63,953 bases of DNA from a virus (Duplodnaviria > Caudoviricetes), in the IMG/VR virus record IMGVR_UViG_3300009081_000013, positions 1-63,953 of that record; one strand, given 5' to 3'. The notes beneath the pieces are model-generated. The model ran no database searches and had not been told where the DNA came from. It worked only from the letters and a program-made list of their open reading frames with translations. How positions within the stretch are numbered: position 1 is the first letter of the stretch; each line of letters starts with the position of its first letter. Shown here piece after piece: positions 31,468 to 46,496 of this stretch. The position numbers were made by a program, and so were the translations under genes.

Positions 31468-32564
31468 TTACCCTTCGCTTTCTTTTGCTCGTACAGCGCT
31501 CGGGCGCGGGCCTTCACCGCCGGCGTCACAGGCTCGCCTTCTTTCCAACCTGTCTCCATCATCAGCGCCTTGACCTCTTCTTTAGAGGGCAAGCCGTCCA
31601 TCTCTTTGGGAGCGTCTTTGGCGGTGCGCACCGATGGCGCCGGGCCTTTCTTTGCCGTCTCGTCAGGCATGGGCACAGTGGCGGCTTCACTCAGCGGCCC
31701 GCGGCCGGGGAGGTAGCCTTTACGCCGGGCGTCTTCAATGAACTGATCATAGGGCTTTTCCGCCAGGCGCTGCTCGTTGGCTTTCTTCTCCTCATCTGAC
31801 AGCCCCACCCACCGAGGTGAATAAGGCTCGATGTACCGAACACTGTTCTTCCACGCTTTATCCACCTGGGGCTCGGAGTACCAAGAGTCACCGATCTCAA
31901 TCTTGCCGGCGTCGAGCAGCTTCTGCCGACGGTCCTCGGGTGTGTCACCGCCCCCGCTGGAGCCCTCGGTGGACAACACACGAATGCGGTTAAGGATTTC
32001 CTGGTGGCGCGGCGATCCTTCGGGGTAGTCCTTGAGCTTGTCCTGTAACCGGATGATCTCAGGATCGGCTTGTTCTTTCCGACTGGTGAGCATCTCAATG
32101 CGTGCTTGCAGTTGCGCCCGCTGTGGAGAATCTTCCGGCAGCCGGTCCATGTAGCGCTGCAACCGCACGATCTCTGGCACATCCTTTTCCACCAACGGGT
32201 CAGGCGCCAAATCCTGCTGCATCTTGAGCATCTGGCCAGTGACGAGTTTTTGCTGAAGCGTCAAATTAGGATTGGACATCACCGACTGCATGCGCGCCTG
32301 CGCCGTAGCCGGATCAGACGCAACTGCCTGCGGATCTTGCGGCAGATTCATCGAAATGCCTTCGGCCCCAGGGATCTGGTTATCATTCGGGTTGGTGCCA
32401 AGCAGCTCTGCGAGCAACTGCTCCTGCTCGCGCTTCTTCTGTTCTTCTTGGGTTTTCATGTAAGAGCTGAGCAGCCCAGCCAATGCTTGCTGTGTGCTGC
32501 CCGCAGGCCCGCCGAAAGGATCTTTGGTCATTCCACCAAATTGAATTACTGGCATTAGAACCAA
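31464..32564 (-). CDS. putative ejection protein
   Basis: Gln/charged helical protein with an internal repeat (PEIVRLQ/PEIIRLQ); synteny. Confidence 0.6.
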   Translation of the reverse strand: MVLMPVIQFGGMTKDPFGGPAGSTQQALAGLLSSYMKTQEEQKKREQEQLLAELLGTNPNDNQIPGAEGISMNLPQDPQAVASDPATAQARMQSVMSNPNLTLQQKLVTGQMLKMQQDLAPDPLVEKDVPEIVRLQRYMDRLPEDSPQRAQLQARIEMLTSRKEQADPEIIRLQDKLKDYPEGSPRHQEILNRIRVLSTEGSSGGGDTPEDRRQKLLDAGKIEIGDSWYSEPQVDKAWKNSVRYIEPYSPRWVGLSDEEKKANEQRLAEKPYDQFIEDARRKGYLPGRGPLSEAATVPMPDETAKKGPAPSVRTAKDAPKEMDGLPSKEEVKALMMETGWKEGEPVTPAVKARARALYEQKKAKGK

Positions 32565-40438: not shown

Positions 40439-41377
40439 TTAGGTATCTTTGGTCACGCGCAGGTTGTGGATGTACGCGTCATTGAGGATGCGGCCGGCCC
40501 AGATGGCCTTCCAGCCGGAGGTGGCGTACCGATCCAACTTGCTGCCCGCCTCGGAGAACCCTTTCACGACACTCTGAATGCCATCCAGGGACACGTCGCC
40601 AAAGGCGTCGGCGCCAAAGATCGGCAGGTAGTACACGGGGGTGGCATCGGTGGATTTGTGGGCATTGGTCGTCCACTCCCAGCGGGTGTTACCCAAAGAA
40701 CCCCACTCCCAGTTAGTAACGCCGGTCTGACTGGCGTAAGCGGCCATGGAGATAAAGCCTGTGCAGGCTTCGAGGTCCATGAGCAGCTCGTCGTGGATGA
40801 TACCGCGGAAGGCAGGGCGGAGAGGCGCACTTCCGACACCGGTGCCGGCTGACACCATCTTGGTGATGAATTTGGCGTTGCCGCCGAGCAAGGACAGCAC
40901 GATGTCATCCACGTCGCCGCGGGTGATCTCGGTGGGGGTGCCACCGTTGTTGCCACCGGAGGCGTTGGTCGCAGAAGCAGAAGCCGCCAGGATGTCACGC
41001 ATGAGCGTCTCGAAGGTGATGTCGGCCTGGTAGCCGTTGCGCTCGGCAGACATGCTGAGCACGGGGTCTTGGTTGGTGACATCGACTTCCTCGACAACGT
41101 GCTCAAAATCGCCAAACCACTGGACCTTTGCAGTCAATGCTTCTTGAGACACTTTGCGGCCAGCCGGGTCTTGACCGGGAGACAGCGGCGTGGTAGCCGC
41201 GGCAGGCATAGGATACCGATGCCATTTGTAAGTATCGCCGCTGTTACGCGGCATGGTGGCCTTCTGGGCGTGCTGCCGGTAGACCATGTTCTCTTTGGAC
41301 GCCTCGAGCAGTACTTTGTTGTAGAAAATTCCTACAGCAGGCACCACATCGGTTACTGAGGTAATGTTGTCGGGCAC
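40439..41377 (-). CDS. major capsid protein, N4-gp56 family
   Basis: MPRNSGDTYKWHRY, QWFGDF, EWGSLGNTRW, GADAFG, TSGWKA...ILND motifs; follows the scaffold. Confidence 0.9.
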   Translation of the reverse strand: MPDNITSVTDVVPAVGIFYNKVLLEASKENMVYRQHAQKATMPRNSGDTYKWHRYPMPAAATTPLSPGQDPAGRKVSQEALTAKVQWFGDFEHVVEEVDVTNQDPVLSMSAERNGYQADITFETLMRDILAASASATNASGGNNGGTPTEITRGDVDDIVLSLLGGNAKFITKMVSAGTGVGSAPLRPAFRGIIHDELLMDLEACTGFISMAAYASQTGVTNWEWGSLGNTRWEWTTNAHKSTDATPVYYLPIFGADAFGDVSLDGIQSVVKGFSEAGSKLDRYATSGWKAIWAGRILNDAYIHNLRVTKDT

Positions 41378-41389
41378 TGTCGTTCTCCT

Positions 41390-42256
41390 TTAGAGGGTCA
41401 CTTCGCCTCTATTCACCCGAGCTTTGAAGTCCGCGAACTCTGCTGAACTCATCTGTGGGATCTTGGCCGCCCACGAAAGCGCTGTAGCCGGCGTACCCCC
41501 AGCCGCCCCGGGGTTGCCCGGCTTGGCCTGATTTTCGATGATTCTGTTCAGCTCATCCATTAAGTTTGCCGGAGCGGCGGCCGGAACCTGCGGAGGCGCG
41601 GCGGGCAGAGCAGCAGCTTGCTGCCGAGCACGCAGCATTGCAAACTGCGCGGCCGTTGCGAGCTGTTTTTCGCGTGGCAAACTTTTGATGAGTTCCGCGA
41701 CCCACGGTTGCTCCTGGATCAAAGCGGGAAGTTGTTCCTTCATGATTTGTTTGAATTGGGGATTTTCCTGGGCCAACTCCAAGGCCATAAGTTTGGGCTG
41801 CAACTGACCCAGCGCCTGCTGGACCAGAGCCTGCACCTTTTGCTCCTGCTGCTGGGATAACGCCGACAAGGCTTTTCGAACCTCGCCAGCTTCAATCAGC
41901 CGATCATCCGGCGCCCCATTAAGCAGATCAGCTACGGCGGCTTGAACTTGAGGCGGGGCCAGAGTGGGTTGCTGCGGCGCAGGCATGTTCGCCCGATAAA
42001 GCGCGAGCCGTTCATTGGCCAACTGCATTTGCTGCTGGTACTCGGAGAGCTGGCTTTTGGATGCCTGCAACTCAGAGCGCAGCTTTTCCATCACCGGCAC
42101 CGGCACCATCCTGGTTTCGACAGGAGCGGGGGCTGGGGCTTCAGTGGTGGGGGCCACAGGGGCTGTGGAAGCCGCGGGGGCGGGCGCAGATGTAGCAGGC
42201 GCTGGAGCCGGGGCGGGGGTAACACTCGGAGTTGGGGTAACGATTGGGTCTGTCAT
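41390..42256 (-). CDS. capsid scaffolding protein
   Basis: Pro/Ala N-terminus, MVP.. plus coiled coil, C-terminal MSSAEF; directly upstream of the MCP. Confidence 0.8.
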   Translation of the reverse strand: MTDPIVTPTPSVTPAPAPAPATSAPAPAASTAPVAPTTEAPAPAPVETRMVPVPVMEKLRSELQASKSQLSEYQQQMQLANERLALYRANMPAPQQPTLAPPQVQAAVADLLNGAPDDRLIEAGEVRKALSALSQQQEQKVQALVQQALGQLQPKLMALELAQENPQFKQIMKEQLPALIQEQPWVAELIKSLPREKQLATAAQFAMLRARQQAAALPAAPPQVPAAAPANLMDELNRIIENQAKPGNPGAAGGTPATALSWAAKIPQMSSAEFADFKARVNRGEVTL

Positions 42257-42265
42257 GTGAACCTC

Positions 42266-42402
42266 TTACGCCCGTTCCATGCGGGTTTGGCCGTCCCGGC
42301 GGCGGACTGTCTCTCGCTTTCGGCGATGAGCTTTAACGCCCTGTGGCCTTGCCCGCCGGCGATTACACCCGGCGGCGGTGTGTTGGGGCCGCTTTCGGCG
42401 GC
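42266..42402 (-). ncRNA. tandem structured cis-regulatory RNA upstream of the scaffold gene
   Basis: Two copies of [CGAAA-loop hairpin][GCCGCCG-loop hairpin][GGGCGU]; stems differ but pairing is kept. Confidence 0.65.
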
Positions 42403-42406
42403 TGGG

Positions 42407-42835
42407 TTAAAAAACCAAACCTTTCACCGGCATGCCGACGGCATCTTTGCAGATGCTGGGCAGCGCGCCGGATGGATCCAAAACACCGGACAGAACGATG
42501 CGGTCGTAGGGCAGCACCCATTCTTTCCGGAAAAGTCCTTGCCGGTTGTTCACGTAAAAGCACATGGTGCCAAGAGTCCTGAAGTTTTCGATCTTGACCG
42601 TCGGGGGCAGCAGATAAATCACTGAGCGCACAGCGCGCTTGCCCACAGCGTCAAAACGCGCGTGGATGAACATGTAGTACGCTTCTTTGGCCGCGTGCTT
42701 GTCGAGCATCTTTTCCATGCTGCGCAGCAGGCCCATGGTAAAATCCTTGGTGATGTCGCCCAGATAAATCTGGTGTGTCTGCTTACGCATGCCAAAAACG
42801 TCGTACATCTGCTTGATCATGATGTTCGGGTTCAT
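42407..42835 (-). CDS. hypothetical protein
   Basis: Between the portal and scaffold genes. Confidence 0.7.
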   Translation of the reverse strand: MNPNIMIKQMYDVFGMRKQTHQIYLGDITKDFTMGLLRSMEKMLDKHAAKEAYYMFIHARFDAVGKRAVRSVIYLLPPTVKIENFRTLGTMCFYVNNRQGLFRKEWVLPYDRIVLSGVLDPSGALPSICKDAVGMPVKGLVF

Positions 42836-44800
42836 TTACATCCCCATCGGCGCCGGAGCGGCCGGGTTGCCGGGCGCCGGAGCGCCTGCTTCTGTTTGCT
42901 GTTTGATCATCGTCAGCACACGCACCAGAGTTTCCAGATTGGTAAGATCGATCGACTGGAGATCCTTAAGCGTTTTGACCCGATCGTAGGTGGCTGAGGT
43001 CCGATTCTCATGCGCTTGGGTCATGCGCTCGGCGGTCTTTGCGATATTGGCCTGCATCATCGCCTGGTTCATCTGCGTCTGCTGACGGTTCATTTCCTGA
43101 TTGGCCGCGTCTTGCTTGGCCGCCGCCTCTTCCCGGGCCTTGATTTGCCGGATCAAATCGCTTTTGCCCTCAAGCGGCCAGGCTTCGATGATCGCCGAAG
43201 TCGGGATTTCTTCCATGCCCATTTTGCGCATGGCCATGAGCTGTGCGTAATAGTGCTGTTTCTGCGTATCAGTGAGCAGACCCTCGACGCACACAACGTC
43301 GTATTTGCCAAAGTCCTTTTCAAGCAACTGTGGCGTGGGGGGTTTGTTGGTAATGCGCTGGAACTTCTGGGGCGTGTAGTTTTTCTGCATCGCCCGCAGT
43401 GTCTTTGACCCAAGGATCTTCTGAGACAGACTTAGGTTGTCGAACAAATCGTGGAGCACCGTGAGTCCTGCGTGCTGCCGAAGCTTGGCCAGGATCGCGC
43501 TCACTTCGACATCCTGCGTATCCGGCATGCCAAACATCTCTTTTGAAAAGCCGGGGATCTCCACCACATCCTGGTCCATGAGCGCAGTCAAGGTGAACAG
43601 CCCCTGCGGGATGTCTGACGCACGCAGTTCTTTGATGTCTTGCTCGATCGGACGATCACCGGGGTTGAGCCAAATGACCTTGCCCTGGCCGGTTTGATAA
43701 AGCTGCTCTTTGTTTTGCACCGAATCCGCGCGGGCGGCGTAGCCAGAACTGATTTGGCTATCAATGATGTCCAGCATTTTGCTCCGGCGCTTGTTGATTT
43801 CGTCTTGCGGATCGCGGTCACAACGGATCAGACCCTGAATGCGAAGCTCGGGCTTGGCTGCCTCGGGGCTCCAAAAGCCGATGAAAGGCACCCACGGGAA
43901 ATCATCTAAGCCCACGGGGTCAGGGCCAGTCCAGACGTGAATGCCATTGGCGAACACGCGCAGCTCAACAGTGGTTTTGGCTCGTTTCACCACCGCGATT
44001 TGGTCTTCGGTCACACCCATGACTTGAAAGTATTCGCGCAACCGCGCATCATCACCGTTCCACTTGGCCACCTGGCCATTGGACTTATCGATGAGCGCTG
44101 TGTGAGAAGCAGTGGTCCGCACCCACATACGATCGTAGGCATATGGCGACTGGTTGTTACGCATGCGATGCGTGCTGGTCATCTGCGGAAACTTCATGCC
44201 ACCGCTGGCCGGCGGGCCGAGGTCGTCCACTTTGATATTGGGCAAAAGCATTTGCAGCCGGTCGCGGCCAACGAGCGTGCGGTTGAGCACTGCTTCGCAG
44301 TCTTTCATGTCCCGCTGGCGACAGGTCATATCAAAAAGTACGCTGTTGTAGTCATGGCGGTACCAGGATATGTCACCGTTGACCAAATCATTGGTATAAT
44401 CCACCATCAACTCGACCATGTTCAAACCGGTGATCAGCGGACCGTGCTCAAAGGCGTCGGAAATCAGATTGTATCCATTGCAGTATTGGGTGTTCCACAG
44501 CAACGCCGCGGACAGGATCTCGCCGGTCATCTGGTCGGACCCTTCGACCGGATCGAGCCGCATGGACAGCCGATTTGCTCTTTGATAACCGCCGACGGCT
44601 TTGATGATGCGCCGGACTTTATTGAACACCAGCGCTTCGCGGCGCTGGCTTTTCAAATAGTTCTTCATGCGCGAGTCCCACTGGTCGCCCAGCATGACTT
44701 CCAGGTCGCGCTTCATCTCCATGTGGAGTTGGCTCCAATCCGCCGAATAGGCACCGTACGCCTCATCGAACTCTTGTGTCTTTTGCAGATCGGTCGCCAT
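42836..44800 (-). CDS. portal protein (P22-like)
   Basis: GDQW, LVFNKVR, FPWVPF, GLIR...DPQDEINKRRSK, GKYDVV motifs; follows the terminase. Confidence 0.9.
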   Translation of the reverse strand: MATDLQKTQEFDEAYGAYSADWSQLHMEMKRDLEVMLGDQWDSRMKNYLKSQRREALVFNKVRRIIKAVGGYQRANRLSMRLDPVEGSDQMTGEILSAALLWNTQYCNGYNLISDAFEHGPLITGLNMVELMVDYTNDLVNGDISWYRHDYNSVLFDMTCRQRDMKDCEAVLNRTLVGRDRLQMLLPNIKVDDLGPPASGGMKFPQMTSTHRMRNNQSPYAYDRMWVRTTASHTALIDKSNGQVAKWNGDDARLREYFQVMGVTEDQIAVVKRAKTTVELRVFANGIHVWTGPDPVGLDDFPWVPFIGFWSPEAAKPELRIQGLIRCDRDPQDEINKRRSKMLDIIDSQISSGYAARADSVQNKEQLYQTGQGKVIWLNPGDRPIEQDIKELRASDIPQGLFTLTALMDQDVVEIPGFSKEMFGMPDTQDVEVSAILAKLRQHAGLTVLHDLFDNLSLSQKILGSKTLRAMQKNYTPQKFQRITNKPPTPQLLEKDFGKYDVVCVEGLLTDTQKQHYYAQLMAMRKMGMEEIPTSAIIEAWPLEGKSDLIRQIKAREEAAAKQDAANQEMNRQQTQMNQAMMQANIAKTAERMTQAHENRTSATYDRVKTLKDLQSIDLTNLETLVRVLTMIKQQTEAGAPAPGNPAAPAPMGM

Positions 44801-44810
44801 GCTTTATCCT

Positions 44811-46496
44811 CTAATAAACAGGAGCGCAGTACTTAGCCTTCATCTCACGATGCGCCGCATCGCTCATCGCGTTGCCGGTGTAACCCTTGTGCGGCGAAAA
44901 CGTGAGCGCCAAAGAATCCAATTTGTTCGGCGAGCGCTTGAGCAAATCCCGAATGGTGTCTTTGTCCGTGATCTTGACCCGGCCGTTTTTATCCCAGAAG
45001 CGCAGCACCTGAAGTTCTTCCCGCAGCTCATCGTCGTCGGGCAGCATCGCCGCAGGATTGTCCTTTAAAAACAACCGCACCTGCCACAGCAACTGATCGC
45101 GCATGCGGTCAAATTCGCCTTCTTCGCACACTTCAGTTGCCCGAACCTGGGTTTTGACACCGACTGCGTTGATGCCGACGCGGCGCAGAGCGGGAGCTGT
45201 TCCCGCGCCAAAGCCGTTGGCGTCAACAAATGTCTTTTTGGTGCCGGCGCGCTTGATCTCTTCTTCAGATCGATCGTTGGTGACACCCATATCCACCCCG
45301 CCCCAGCCGGCGAACTCTTTTACGAACGCGCCAAAGCGGTGACACAGCGAGGTCTTGTCCACACCAAGTTCGCCCGGATCAATTCCGGTCGTTCCCTCGG
45401 CGCCTTCGGGCGGGTCTTCGCCATGCTGGTCCACGTAGGCTTCCCAGCGGGCCATGGCGTTATCGATCCAGCCTTCTTCGATGAGGACATTTTCTTCCTT
45501 GGATGGGTATTCGCCCAACACCATGTAGGAAAACTTGGGATTTTCAATACGATAGCGACCGGGACGAAGCGGAGGATACAGCGTGCCGTCTTTTTTGCGG
45601 GCGACATAGCCAACCATAAACTCAGGCAGCACAAACACGTCCGCGCCAGCGTAGTCGTCATCGTCGCGCAACCACCGGCACCAGTTGTTGATACGCCAAC
45701 CGGTTTTCTCCCGCGTTACCGCGCCAGGGTAGACGTCTTCGCCGGTGGTGACGTTGGGGTGCTCAAAGGCGGAGAGCTGGACCACAACTGCTTCGTGGTC
45801 CTTGATCATTTTATAAACGCGGCCGTGCTTGTGCCGGGGGTTAAACATCACCAGCAGGCGGGCCATACCGCCGGACATGCACGACTCGATGCCGGAGTAA
45901 ACAGGATCAGGCACAGCGTCGCCCTCGTCCACGATGAACACAATGACGGGGGCGTGGCGGCCAGAGAAGCGGGCCTCTCTTTCGTGCTCCATGCCCTGCC
46001 CGGGGATTGTCAGACCGTCGATCGTTGAGCTGCCCATACGAAGGGTCATGCCGGAAATCCGACACGGCCCAAAGACCGCTTCGGCGCTCTTGACGTTGCC
46101 GGTAACTTTGTCCCAGAGGATGCGCCGAAGGTTTTTCTCCGGCGGAGCGGCGGTCATGTAGACTTCGGCGTTTGGGAAGCACTTAGCGAAAAACACCGCT
46201 AAATCGGCTGCCGCGTAGGATTTACCGACAGCGTTCCCTGATTGGGCCACAACCACTTCGTTTTCAATCACCGCATTGAGCAACCGGGTGACGTTCTCCG
46301 GATAGGTATGGCCGAGAACCTCTTTGCTAAAAAGCGCGGGGTCTTTTTGATATTGAGTCATAACAGCGGTCTGGGTTTCCAACTCGGGGTTGCCGCCAAA
46401 GCCGGCGAGCAGCTCGGAGAACAGTTGATCCTTCACGGCGCGGGCGCCATTGGGAGCAACCAGATCAAATCCAAGTCGAGAAGCTGCGCTATTCAA
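44811..46496 (-). CDS. terL: terminase large subunit
   Basis: SGNAVGKS (Walker A), VFIVDEG (Walker B), FNP, GIDPG, RSPNKLDSLALTF; start uncertain. Confidence 0.92.
   Translation of the reverse strand: MNSAASRLGFDLVAPNGARAVKDQLFSELLAGFGGNPELETQTAVMTQYQKDPALFSKEVLGHTYPENVTRLLNAVIENEVVVAQSGNAVGKSYAAADLAVFFAKCFPNAEVYMTAAPPEKNLRRILWDKVTGNVKSAEAVFGPCRISGMTLRMGSSTIDGLTIPGQGMEHEREARFSGRHAPVIVFIVDEGDAVPDPVYSGIESCMSGGMARLLVMFNPRHKHGRVYKMIKDHEAVVVQLSAFEHPNVTTGEDVYPGAVTREKTGWRINNWCRWLRDDDDYAGADVFVLPEFMVGYVARKKDGTLYPPLRPGRYRIENPKFSYMVLGEYPSKEENVLIEEGWIDNAMARWEAYVDQHGEDPPEGAEGTTGIDPGELGVDKTSLCHRFGAFVKEFAGWGGVDMGVTNDRSEEEIKRAGTKKTFVDANGFGAGTAPALRRVGINAVGVKTQVRATEVCEEGEFDRMRDQLLWQVRLFLKDNPAAMLPDDDELREELQVLRFWDKNGRVKITDKDTIRDLLKRSPNKLDSLALTFSPHKGYTGNAMSDAAHREMKAKYCAPVY

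Follow-up and report, generated by a model that had tools for sequence, protein, structure and literature searches.

Repeated H-type pseudoknots around the start of the scaffold-position gene in a broad set of uncultured phages

A phage needs its scaffold and capsid proteins in a fixed ratio and in very large amounts, and the post-transcriptional control behind this is poorly understood outside P22. The question is raised by the stretch of DNA analyzed here ("the window"), IMG/VR virus record IMGVR_UViG_3300009081_000013 (Duplodnaviria; Caudoviricetes), which is a complete virus genome of 63,953 bp with terminal repeats. On its minus strand, the large terminase, a P22-like portal, and a 142-aa open reading frame (ORF) are followed by a 150-nt gap, a 288-aa ORF in the scaffold position, and the major capsid gene. 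What does the gap hold, and does it bear on the synthesis of the scaffold? An original prediction, made from the letters alone, placed in it two tandem RNA units, possibly pseudoknots, directly ahead of the ribosome-binding site (RBS). We find a conserved element, backed by covariation, at the scaffold start of a broad set of uncultured podovirus-like phages, which offers a mutable handle on the control of scaffold synthesis.

The units and their covariation

Both units lie on the minus strand exactly where they had been placed, with the GAGG Shine–Dalgarno sequence (SD) and the ATG after them. Each is made up of an accessory hairpin with a CGAAA loop, a second hairpin whose loop is the 7-nt GCCGCCG, and a box reading GGGCG (Table 1); the end of box 2 is 3 nt from the SD. 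The loops of the two units are identical and the stems differ and still pair, as had been noted, and in relatives these stems covary (alignments A5, A7, and A10, described below). Three direct repeats, spaced 68–75 nt apart, were found, the box being repeat D4. A scan of the window for the combined pattern CGAAAGCG..CCGCCGCCGGG returns this gap alone, with two occurrences, and 0 of 100 dinucleotide shuffles contain it; genome-wide, the two copies of the unit are the only ones.

To see the motif in homologous loci, 50 capsid homologues were aligned (A2), and with this alignment 53 viral, 79 metagenome, and 6 genome loci were retrieved (numbers prefixed with L below); 133 loci gave 74 distinct complete scaffold leaders. 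Of these 74, 51 contain one or more hairpins that combine a stem of at least 3 bp with the loop G-N-N-G-N-C-G/T and have a GGGC-N box near them, the commonest loops being GCCGCCG (34), GUCGCCG (8), GAAGCCG (7), and GCGGCCG (6). The core unit can be described as a variable stem of 3–8 bp (S1), a 7-nt loop G-N-N-G-C-C-G, and a nearby GGGC-N box, where loop positions 3–6 pair with G-G-C-N of the box. The loop connecting hairpin and box runs from about 3 to about 30 nt, and a minimal unit takes up only some 26 nt. Such a unit is found in 61 of 78 homologous scaffold start regions, at capsid identities of 29–93%. Two covariance models were used, R1 for units with the hairpin before the box and R2 for the reverse order; R1 matches 41 of the 78 loci, R2 48, both 28, and neither 17.

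R1 was built from 29 units. In 473 kb searched on both strands it gives 64 matches at an expectation value (E) of at most 0.5, 63 of them on the sense strand, and 61 fall within −250 to +150 of the scaffold start, a zone that makes up 3.2% of the sequence searched. Seed units match by construction, and many of the matches are non-seed (L196, L246, L249, L004, L213, L219, L271, L274, L300, and L321). Of the three matches outside the zone, the one in L321 has an explanation: the ORF called scaffold there looks like a LAGLIDADG homing endonuclease, so that the unit may precede the true scaffold gene upstream. In the window, R1 matches unit 1 at 42333–42381 with 31.9 bits and unit 2 at 42265–42308 with 34.9 bits. 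A further match at 31697–31735 on the plus strand (16.2 bits, E = 0.77) is probably due to chance.

The R1 alignment (A5) has 59 distinct rows. Within S1, column pair 3–15 is paired in all 59 rows with six pair types, and pairs 4–14 and 5–13 are each paired in 58. Over the whole structure 91.1% of cells are paired, compared with 68.2% in shuffles (0 of 500 as high), a comparison that, like the permutation below, is not a true probability since the sequences are related, though the changes arise in several separate lineages. The variable pseudoknot pair joins loop position 3 to box position 5 and is CG in 37 rows, GU in 4, UG in 4, AU in 2, and UA in 2, with 10 rows unpaired. The 49 of 59 rows that do pair here compare with an average of 37.9 on permutation, and 0 of 100,000 shuffles reach 49. 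The remaining three of the four pseudoknot pairs are constant, as are the flanking G residues, whereas S1 is free to vary.

The pairing of hairpin loop with box is, therefore, an H-type pseudoknot supported by covariation, and the element is a structure of the sense-strand RNA, as seen from its G–U pairs and from the strand bias of the R1 and R2 matches. The predicted pairing of the loop CGCC with the downstream GGCG next to the RBS holds up well, since in the alignment of reversed units (A10) the variable pair is formed throughout. Covariation, whose absence from homologous leaders had been named as the sign to the contrary, is present both in S1 and in the pseudoknot pair.

Close relatives of the window, at capsid identities of 73–93%, were found through capsid-based searches and pattern scans (L004, L013, L260, L246, L249, and L196/L247), and all of them have the two-unit leader. 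In an alignment of seven whole leaders (A7), where four hairpins and two pseudoknot helices were counted, 93.8% of cells are paired compared with 86.9% in shuffles (0 of 500 as high), and 10 pairs change on both sides. Hairpin a2, whose extended stem CTC(A)TCGC / GCGAGAG has a single A bulged out, covaries at 6 of its 8 pairs, several of them G–U, and such pairs are possible on the minus strand only. Hairpin a1 is independently predicted by RNAalifold. The loop–box pairs are invariant in A7, and the clade is, therefore, uninformative about the pseudoknot. A long-range helix between the units (helix H) comes in three compensating versions, GGCC/GGCC, GACC/GGUC, and GAGC/GCUC, its four pairs being GC in 7; AU in 4 and GC in 3; CG in 6 and GC in 1; and CG in 7. 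RNAalifold, when run on A7, prefers cross-unit pairing plus helix H. By eye, an analogous helix can be seen at the same topological place in L250 (UUUAUC/GAUAAA) and in L252.

The CGAAA loop is not universal, for unit 2 of L196 has CUGAUAA, and outside the clade the 'GCCGAAAGC' apex is retained only in L200, L205, L257, and L210. The CGAAA hairpins are thus a clade-specific accessory, and the conserved core is the second hairpin with its box. This is where the original prediction fell short, since it took the accessory hairpin as part of the unit and missed both how widespread the motif is and that in many phages it extends into the coding region. Lambdoid nut sites have a 5-bp stem, a G-first GNRA-like pentaloop, and an upstream boxA, and lie downstream of an early promoter. 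We considered and rejected a nut site for a1 and a2 since their loop CGAAA starts with C, is replaced by CUGAUAA in L196, and belongs to a late head operon.

Two smaller observations concern the limits of the pattern. The leaders of L308, L309, and L317 have a divergent variant in a longer stem, with GUCGACGG replacing the loop and GGGCAUAA as the box; the usual pseudoknot register is unpaired there, and R1 and R2 give no score. Loose pattern scans of IMG/VR returned mostly chance matches in G+C-rich coding DNA. Among 169 pattern matches in the retrieved loci and the window, 14 pass the stem filter, of which 13 are the window's clade, multiply counted because of overlapping loci, and the other, L138, is likely chance.

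Reversed units in the coding sequence and the spread of the motif

Many R1 matches lie downstream of the start codon, where the box comes first and a hairpin follows 5–11 nt later, all within the first 15 codons or so. R2, built from 25 units in this order, gives 58 matches in 489 kb, all 58 on the sense strand, with 40 in coding sequences (CDSs), 16 in leaders, and 2 elsewhere. In A10, which is the R2 alignment, the pseudoknot pair is formed in 56 of 56 rows (GC in 51, AU in 5), and pairing in S1 reaches 90.6%, each position showing five or six types of pair. A unit in this order is also present in the prophage of an isolate, Desulfatibacillum alkenivorans DSM 16219 (L328). In a 6.5-Mb bacterial genome, R2 has one match, at the scaffold start of a prophage, where 150 of 7,609 first-look candidates were scored.

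The units within the CDS keep ACG/UCG-GGC and GCC-GCC codons even where the G+C content of the phage is 40–45%, and changes in the stem alter the encoded residues (P-A-A-G-G, G-D-A-D-Q, S-A-A-D-L, and Q-A-A-A-D). As the codons are kept and the residues shift with the stem, it is the RNA that is conserved here and not the peptide. The motif is conserved over a range of phage G+C from 0.37 to 0.61.

Some messenger RNAs (mRNAs) carry units with different variable pairs, and in these every loop matches its adjacent box. In L273, L274, and L300 the leader unit has A:U and the CDS unit C:G; the two units are U:A and C:G in L218 and L271, and C:G and U:A in L298 and L333.

The common layout is hairpin, box, SD, AUG, four to seven codons, box, and hairpin, so that boxes face the RBS from both sides. 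The proximal leader unit ends 7–14 nt before the AUG and the distal one 76–84 nt before it, and in most relatives the last leader box ends 10–17 nt before the start codon. In the CDS the box motif starts at +13 to +25, with a mode of +19, and the units occupy codons 5–15. Together, the leader unit and its mirror copy in the CDS frame the 30–40 nt or so that a 30S subunit covers. The layout in the window's clade differs in having two leader units, the accessory hairpins, and helix H, with no CDS unit.

The motif is not confined to one capsid family. When IMG/VR was scanned for the exact pattern, 82 stretches came up, and 39 of 75 newly retrieved loci have an S1 of at least 3 bp. The ORFs around the unit were listed in 14 of these 39 loci: five have portal-size ORFs (609–740 aa) upstream, and the one tested (L361) belongs to phrog_156; most of the 14 have a 230–280-aa ORF downstream, and then the capsid gene. 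Family searches with nine ORFs of capsid size, taken from eight of the 14 loci, placed seven in phrog_334 and one in phrog_212 and left the 360-aa ORF of L384 without a family, so the motif adjoins the capsid genes of two further PHROG families. A subgroup that includes L337, L374, L361, and L382 has a covarying S1 of 7–8 bp.

No unit is present in the eight cultured phages examined, namely Pseudoalteromonas vB_Pun_Y3, Stenotrophomonas StenR_269, Xanthomonas DES1, Paracoccus KLEP18-1, Burkholderia Bcep22, Ochrobactrum POI1126, Ralstonia GP4, and Salmonella P22. Bcep22 and GP4 have a phrog_334-type capsid. A CsrA-like RNA-binding regulator is encoded directly upstream of the capsid gene in both, in L412 (Burkholderia phage Bcep22 gp54) and in L414 (Ralstonia phage GP4), and the control of head genes after transcription may recur among phages. 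As an explanation of the present motif, a CsrA-binding leader, which has GGA in hairpin loops that overlap the SD, was rejected: the conserved loops are G-N-N-G-C-C-G, with no GGA.

What the element may do

We infer that the element acts in cis, on the mRNA, and on the initiation of scaffold translation; it probably also affects the capsid gene, which starts 12 nt past the scaffold stop codon. The reading we favor, although we hold to it only tentatively, makes the element a translational operator to which a phage protein tied to assembly would bind, the free scaffold being the leading candidate. P22 is known to autoregulate its scaffold, and it is on this account that the reading is rated as it is. 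In this scheme, a protein of the phage whose free level reflects the state of assembly would bind the pseudoknots beside the SD, the unassembled scaffold protein being the first candidate and the capsid protein the next, and binding would block or trap the 30S subunit. With two or three units, the protein might bind cooperatively or as a dimer. S15 and T4 gp32 occlude or trap the 30S subunit on their own mRNAs. In the variant seen in the window, both units would work from upstream of the start, joined by helix H and the two accessory hairpins.

The invariant G–C pairs and unpaired G residues, standing beside a freely varying stem, point to recognition of the sequence by a specific partner rather than to mere stability, and units that are repeated and mirrored would suit a protein that binds cooperatively or as a dimer and so occludes or traps the 30S subunit. 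The narrower claim, that the unassembled scaffold (or capsid) protein throttles its own translation through these units, is as yet a doubtful one.

A number of points weigh against the operator reading and should be kept in mind. The nested minimum free energy of a 163-nt stretch around the units gives z = −0.11 relative to shuffles, which is not unusually stable, and the case rests, therefore, on conservation and covariation. Ten of the 59 hairpin-then-box units in A5 are unpaired at the variable position. The unit lies directly before the capsid gene in L341 (3403–3431) and L392, and before a 162-aa ORF in L384 (6203–6231). The motif is also dispensable, as 17 of the 78 homologous loci have no unit by R1 or R2, and it is absent from P22, from three cultured relatives of the window's capsid family, and from four cultured phages with a phrog_334-type capsid. 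Lastly, no PHROG family was found for 10 motif-adjacent ORFs in the scaffold position, nor for the 288-aa ORF; a poorly conserved scaffold facing a near-invariant RNA core is a better fit for a conserved partner, such as the capsid, the portal, or the ribosome. The low conservation of the scaffold, the lack of the motif in P22, and the units placed ahead of capsid genes speak in particular against the scaffold as the bound protein.

A rival explanation needs no regulator, and we consider it unlikely, if worth serious thought: compact G–C-rich pseudoknots may tune translation or mRNA stability simply by keeping the RBS single-stranded and correctly spaced or, in a variant, by docking on the platform or entry site of the 30S subunit or protecting the 5′ end of the most heavily used late mRNA from RNases. 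The units do frame the stretch that the 30S subunit covers, the terminators found upstream in many relatives would place them near a new or processed 5′ end, and conservation over so wide a range of G+C content fits a universal partner such as the ribosome; scaffold and capsid are, moreover, the most abundant proteins of the virion. On such an account, however, one would expect the three fixed pairs of the pseudoknot and the unpaired Gs to have drifted along with S1, which they have not, and 17 of 78 relatives manage without the motif. A riboswitch is improbable. Each pseudoknot would be an aptamer for a small metabolite or ion, the tandem would sharpen the response, and capsid production would be tied to the state of the host. 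Invariant unpaired nucleotides, a tandem arrangement, and a place next to the SD are what one would expect of it, and in size and fold class the units resemble the smallest known pseudoknot riboswitches. Against this, 40 of the 58 box-then-hairpin units are within the coding region, two permuted orders exist with connecting loops of about 3 to about 30 nt, the SD is outside both helices, no Rfam family matches, and there is no obvious ligand logic for a scaffold gene.

The remaining explanations have still less to commend them. That the units are a target of RNase or a new small ribozyme, separating the scaffold–capsid message from that of the portal, is very improbable: although they stand at the border of two gene blocks, often right behind a terminator, and have a small pseudoknotted fold with conserved purines, cleavage at units in the first 15 codons would destroy the message, and the conserved core is very small. 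Much the same low rating applies to pairing of loops with boxes between units or between molecules, by which scaffold mRNAs would be gathered or tied to procapsids, much as phi29 prohead RNA uses loop–loop pairing. In the window's clade the loops and boxes are interchangeable and RNAalifold favors cross-unit pairing with helix H; where units differ, however, the loop pairs with the adjacent box and not with the distant one. We give the least credence to a role at the level of the DNA, as a repeat, promoter, or operator, or to a conserved peptide at the N-terminus, the upstream copies being its decayed remnants. Tandem direct repeats do stand beside the gene start, the terminator upstream in relatives means that a promoter must be nearby, and CDS copies encode a recurring T-G...P-A-A-G-G. 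Yet the covarying G–U pairs would read A–C on the opposite strand, the site is single in the genome with no sigma-70-like promoter near it, the spacings of the leader copies are not multiples of three, and the third codon positions in the CDS are fixed while the amino acids follow the stem.

Should the narrower claim on the scaffold (or capsid) protein hold, scaffold autoregulation would gain a defined RNA target, and the units would form a widespread class of ancient origin, with twin pseudoknots enclosing the RBS from the leader and from the first codons. A minimal pseudoknot of 26 nt with one free pair could also serve as a compact, portable part for translational control.

Known systems and the genome around the element

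Loop–flank pairing with covariation and a location at the RBS, which characterize H-type pseudoknot operators of the S15 and gene-32 type, are both found here. The Escherichia coli rpsO (S15) leader is an 'entrapment' operator, an H-type pseudoknot beside the SD, where the repressor stabilizes it on the 30S platform and stalls initiation. The resemblance is in a hairpin loop that pairs with a downstream stretch next to the SD; unlike rpsO, which is a single copy for a ribosomal protein and unrelated in sequence, the present units are repeated, come in two orders, flank the start codon, and are found at a gene for phage assembly, and protein binding to them is only proposed. The alpha operon (S4) has a large nested double pseudoknot around the rpsM start; there, as here, structure spans the RBS and draws on upstream and coding nucleotides, although our units are small, separate, and of unrelated sequence. 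The preQ1-I riboswitch is a small H-type pseudoknot, can be tandem, and pairs its loop with the 3′ tail next to the SD. It is comparable in size to the minimal unit of about 26 nt; it differs from our units in that their SD is outside the helices, many lie in coding sequence, the order is permuted in some, and no Rfam family matches.

T4 gene 32, a phage gene for a structural or replicative protein, has an H-type pseudoknot ahead of it, and by way of this structure its product regulates its own translation. T4 gp32 nucleates at a single pseudoknot and from there extends over the unstructured RNA of the RBS, whereas the present units are several, discrete, and invariant in their core, and neither sequence nor gene is related. 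Excerpts of one paper (PMC10690425) indicate that Rfam has no model for the gene 32 pseudoknot.

P22, which the original prediction had invoked as precedent, shares the order of head genes (terminase, P22-like portal, scaffold, capsid), with an extra 142-aa ORF between portal and scaffold in the window. Free scaffold in P22 reportedly lowers its own synthesis post-transcriptionally, going by the title of Wyckoff and Casjens 1985. The N-terminus of the P22 scaffolding protein is 'implicated in translational autoregulation' in the excerpt available of a further report (10.1101/2022.12.13.520362), and the portions of the literature searched describe no RNA target for this autoregulation. The precedent, therefore, stands as an analogy of function and not for the RNA element: gene 8 has a leader of 13 nt behind the portal gene, and the best R1 match in the phage (E = 0.65) is elsewhere. 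In P22 (L415, 3893–3975), the first codons of gene 8 read ...L-S-G-D-H-A-A-A-S-A-D..., loosely like the T/S-G...A-A-A of CDS units, and a hairpin is possible by eye at the gene start (R1 E = 8.6, no score).

The Rfam covariance search that had been suggested for the motif was run with Rfam 15, and at gathering score there is no match in the whole window. At E ≤ 10 on 42000–42700, the only match overlapping the motif is a fragment of the Glutamine-II riboswitch (RF01704), which was rejected because it covers only model positions 41–54 of 60 (14 nt) at 11.0 bits against a gathering score of 33 (E = 6.2). In the loci of six relatives, at E ≤ 1, there is no match in the motif region, and Glutamine-II is absent. 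Literature searches returned no RNA element described in a scaffold leader. The excerpts of PMC10690425 report an IMG/VR catalogue of more than 10,000 candidate structured RNAs, five of them upstream of one capsid family; these share with our element the data source and a possible cis-regulatory place upstream of phage structural genes. The word 'scaffold' is absent from its main text as far as this is available, and since the candidates themselves are listed in supplements, a prior listing there is possible. Pseudoknot operators at an RBS are known as a kind, whereas the family, the repetition in two orders, the reach into coding sequence, and the link to head assembly appear to be new. The result is an RNA family new to Rfam, with structure kept inside coding sequence at a cost in amino acids.

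Table 1. Features of the window at the head-gene block and within the leader (positions in the 63,953-nt stretch)
Feature	Position	Strand	Sequence or remark
Large terminase	44811-46496	-	
P22-like portal	42836-44800	-	phrog_156 at 1.7e-70; PF16510 at 2.9e-65
142-aa ORF	42407-42835	-	No family; PHROG and Pfam searches empty
Gap holding both units, 150 nt	42257-42406	-	Between 142-aa ORF and scaffold-position gene
Hairpin a1	42388-42402	-	5-bp stem GCCGC/GCGGC, CGAAA loop; in A7, 2/5 pairs change on both sides, 100% of cells paired
Hairpin b1 (S1, unit 1)	42365-42381	-	ACACC/GGTGT, loop GCCGCCG 42376-42370
Box 1 with flank	42341-42333	-	GGGCGTTAA; GGGCG = 42341-42337
Proposed pseudoknot pairs, b1 loop:box 1	42374:42337, 42373:42338, 42372:42339, 42371:42340	-	
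Helix H, long-range	42345-42348 with 42289-42292	-	GGCC/GGCC; RNAalifold on A7
Hairpin a2	42311-42330	-	Core TCGC/GCGA (42326-42314), CGAAA loop
Hairpin b2 (S1, unit 2)	42293-42307	-	GTCC/GGAC, loop GCCGCCG 42303-42297
Box 2	42273-42266	-	GGGCGTAA; GGGCG = 42273-42269
Box 2 with both flanks	42266-42275	-	ACGGGCGTAA
Proposed pseudoknot pairs, b2 loop:box 2	42301:42269, 42300:42270, 42299:42271, 42298:42272	-	
SD and ATG of scaffold-position gene	42254-42265	-	GAGG 42265-42262; ATG 42256-42254
288-aa ORF, scaffold position	41390-42256	-	Between P22-like portal and N4-gp56-type capsid
N4-gp56-family major capsid protein	40439-41377	-	phrog_1357 at 4.7e-33; relatives named N4-gp56 family, carry PF25209

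The identity of the 288-aa ORF deserves some care. Its position agrees with the predicted scaffold, its N-terminus is rich in Pro and Ala and its body in Gln, Leu, Ala, and Glu, and the nearest named ESM-Atlas clusters are 'scaffolding protein' (score 0.92), which we treat as a lead and not as proof. There is no PHROG match, and the Pfam match is below threshold. BLASTP against the annotated scaffolding protein of StenR_269 gave no scaffold homology, and tblastn with the portal against cultured phages at 1e-20 gave no match. Pfam and PHROG searches of the neighboring small ORFs yielded no identity apart from one HNH endonuclease. The stop codon of the 142-aa ORF is 4 nt 5′ of hairpin a1, and relatives have similar ORFs of 125–145 aa in the equivalent position.

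Box 2 is overlapped by a mini-ORF of 4 codons, AUG-GAA-CGG-GCG-UAA (42280–42266, minus strand). As a leader peptide this was rejected, since only the window, L004, and L013 have it, and L260, L246, L249, and L196 lack it. An intrinsic terminator or attenuator was likewise rejected, as none of the four hairpins is followed by a run of U. The box sequence ACGGGCG (42275–42269, and in all boxes) would be complementary to the universally conserved stretch of 16S ribosomal RNA at about 1400–1406, the target of a common 'universal' reverse primer; the match is at most 6–7 nt in the alignments, and we treat it as a lead only.

Promoter and terminator calling across the leader (42257–42406) found no terminator-like site, and no sigma-70-like promoter is nearby. 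In many relatives, an intrinsic terminator (a G+C hairpin and a run of U) lies 10–30 nt upstream of the first unit, as in L250, L200, L205, L210, L257, L298, L332, L333, L213, L227, and L292; the window itself has none upstream of its units. In those relatives, the scaffold–capsid message must come, therefore, from read-through, antitermination, or a promoter that overlaps the terminator. A search for expression data turned up no RNA data set, and four sequencing runs yielded only short contigs of relatives, probably from DNA, that carry neither transcript ends nor strand.

Homing-endonuclease genes are found within or beside the portal–scaffold–capsid block at L321 2376–2897, L326 2520–2969, L411 1717–2295, and L406 2742–3236. 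The last is HNH by Pfam, L326 is annotated 'intron homing endonuclease' and L411 'HNH endonuclease', and that of L321 is LAGLIDADG-like by eye only, from its opening residues.

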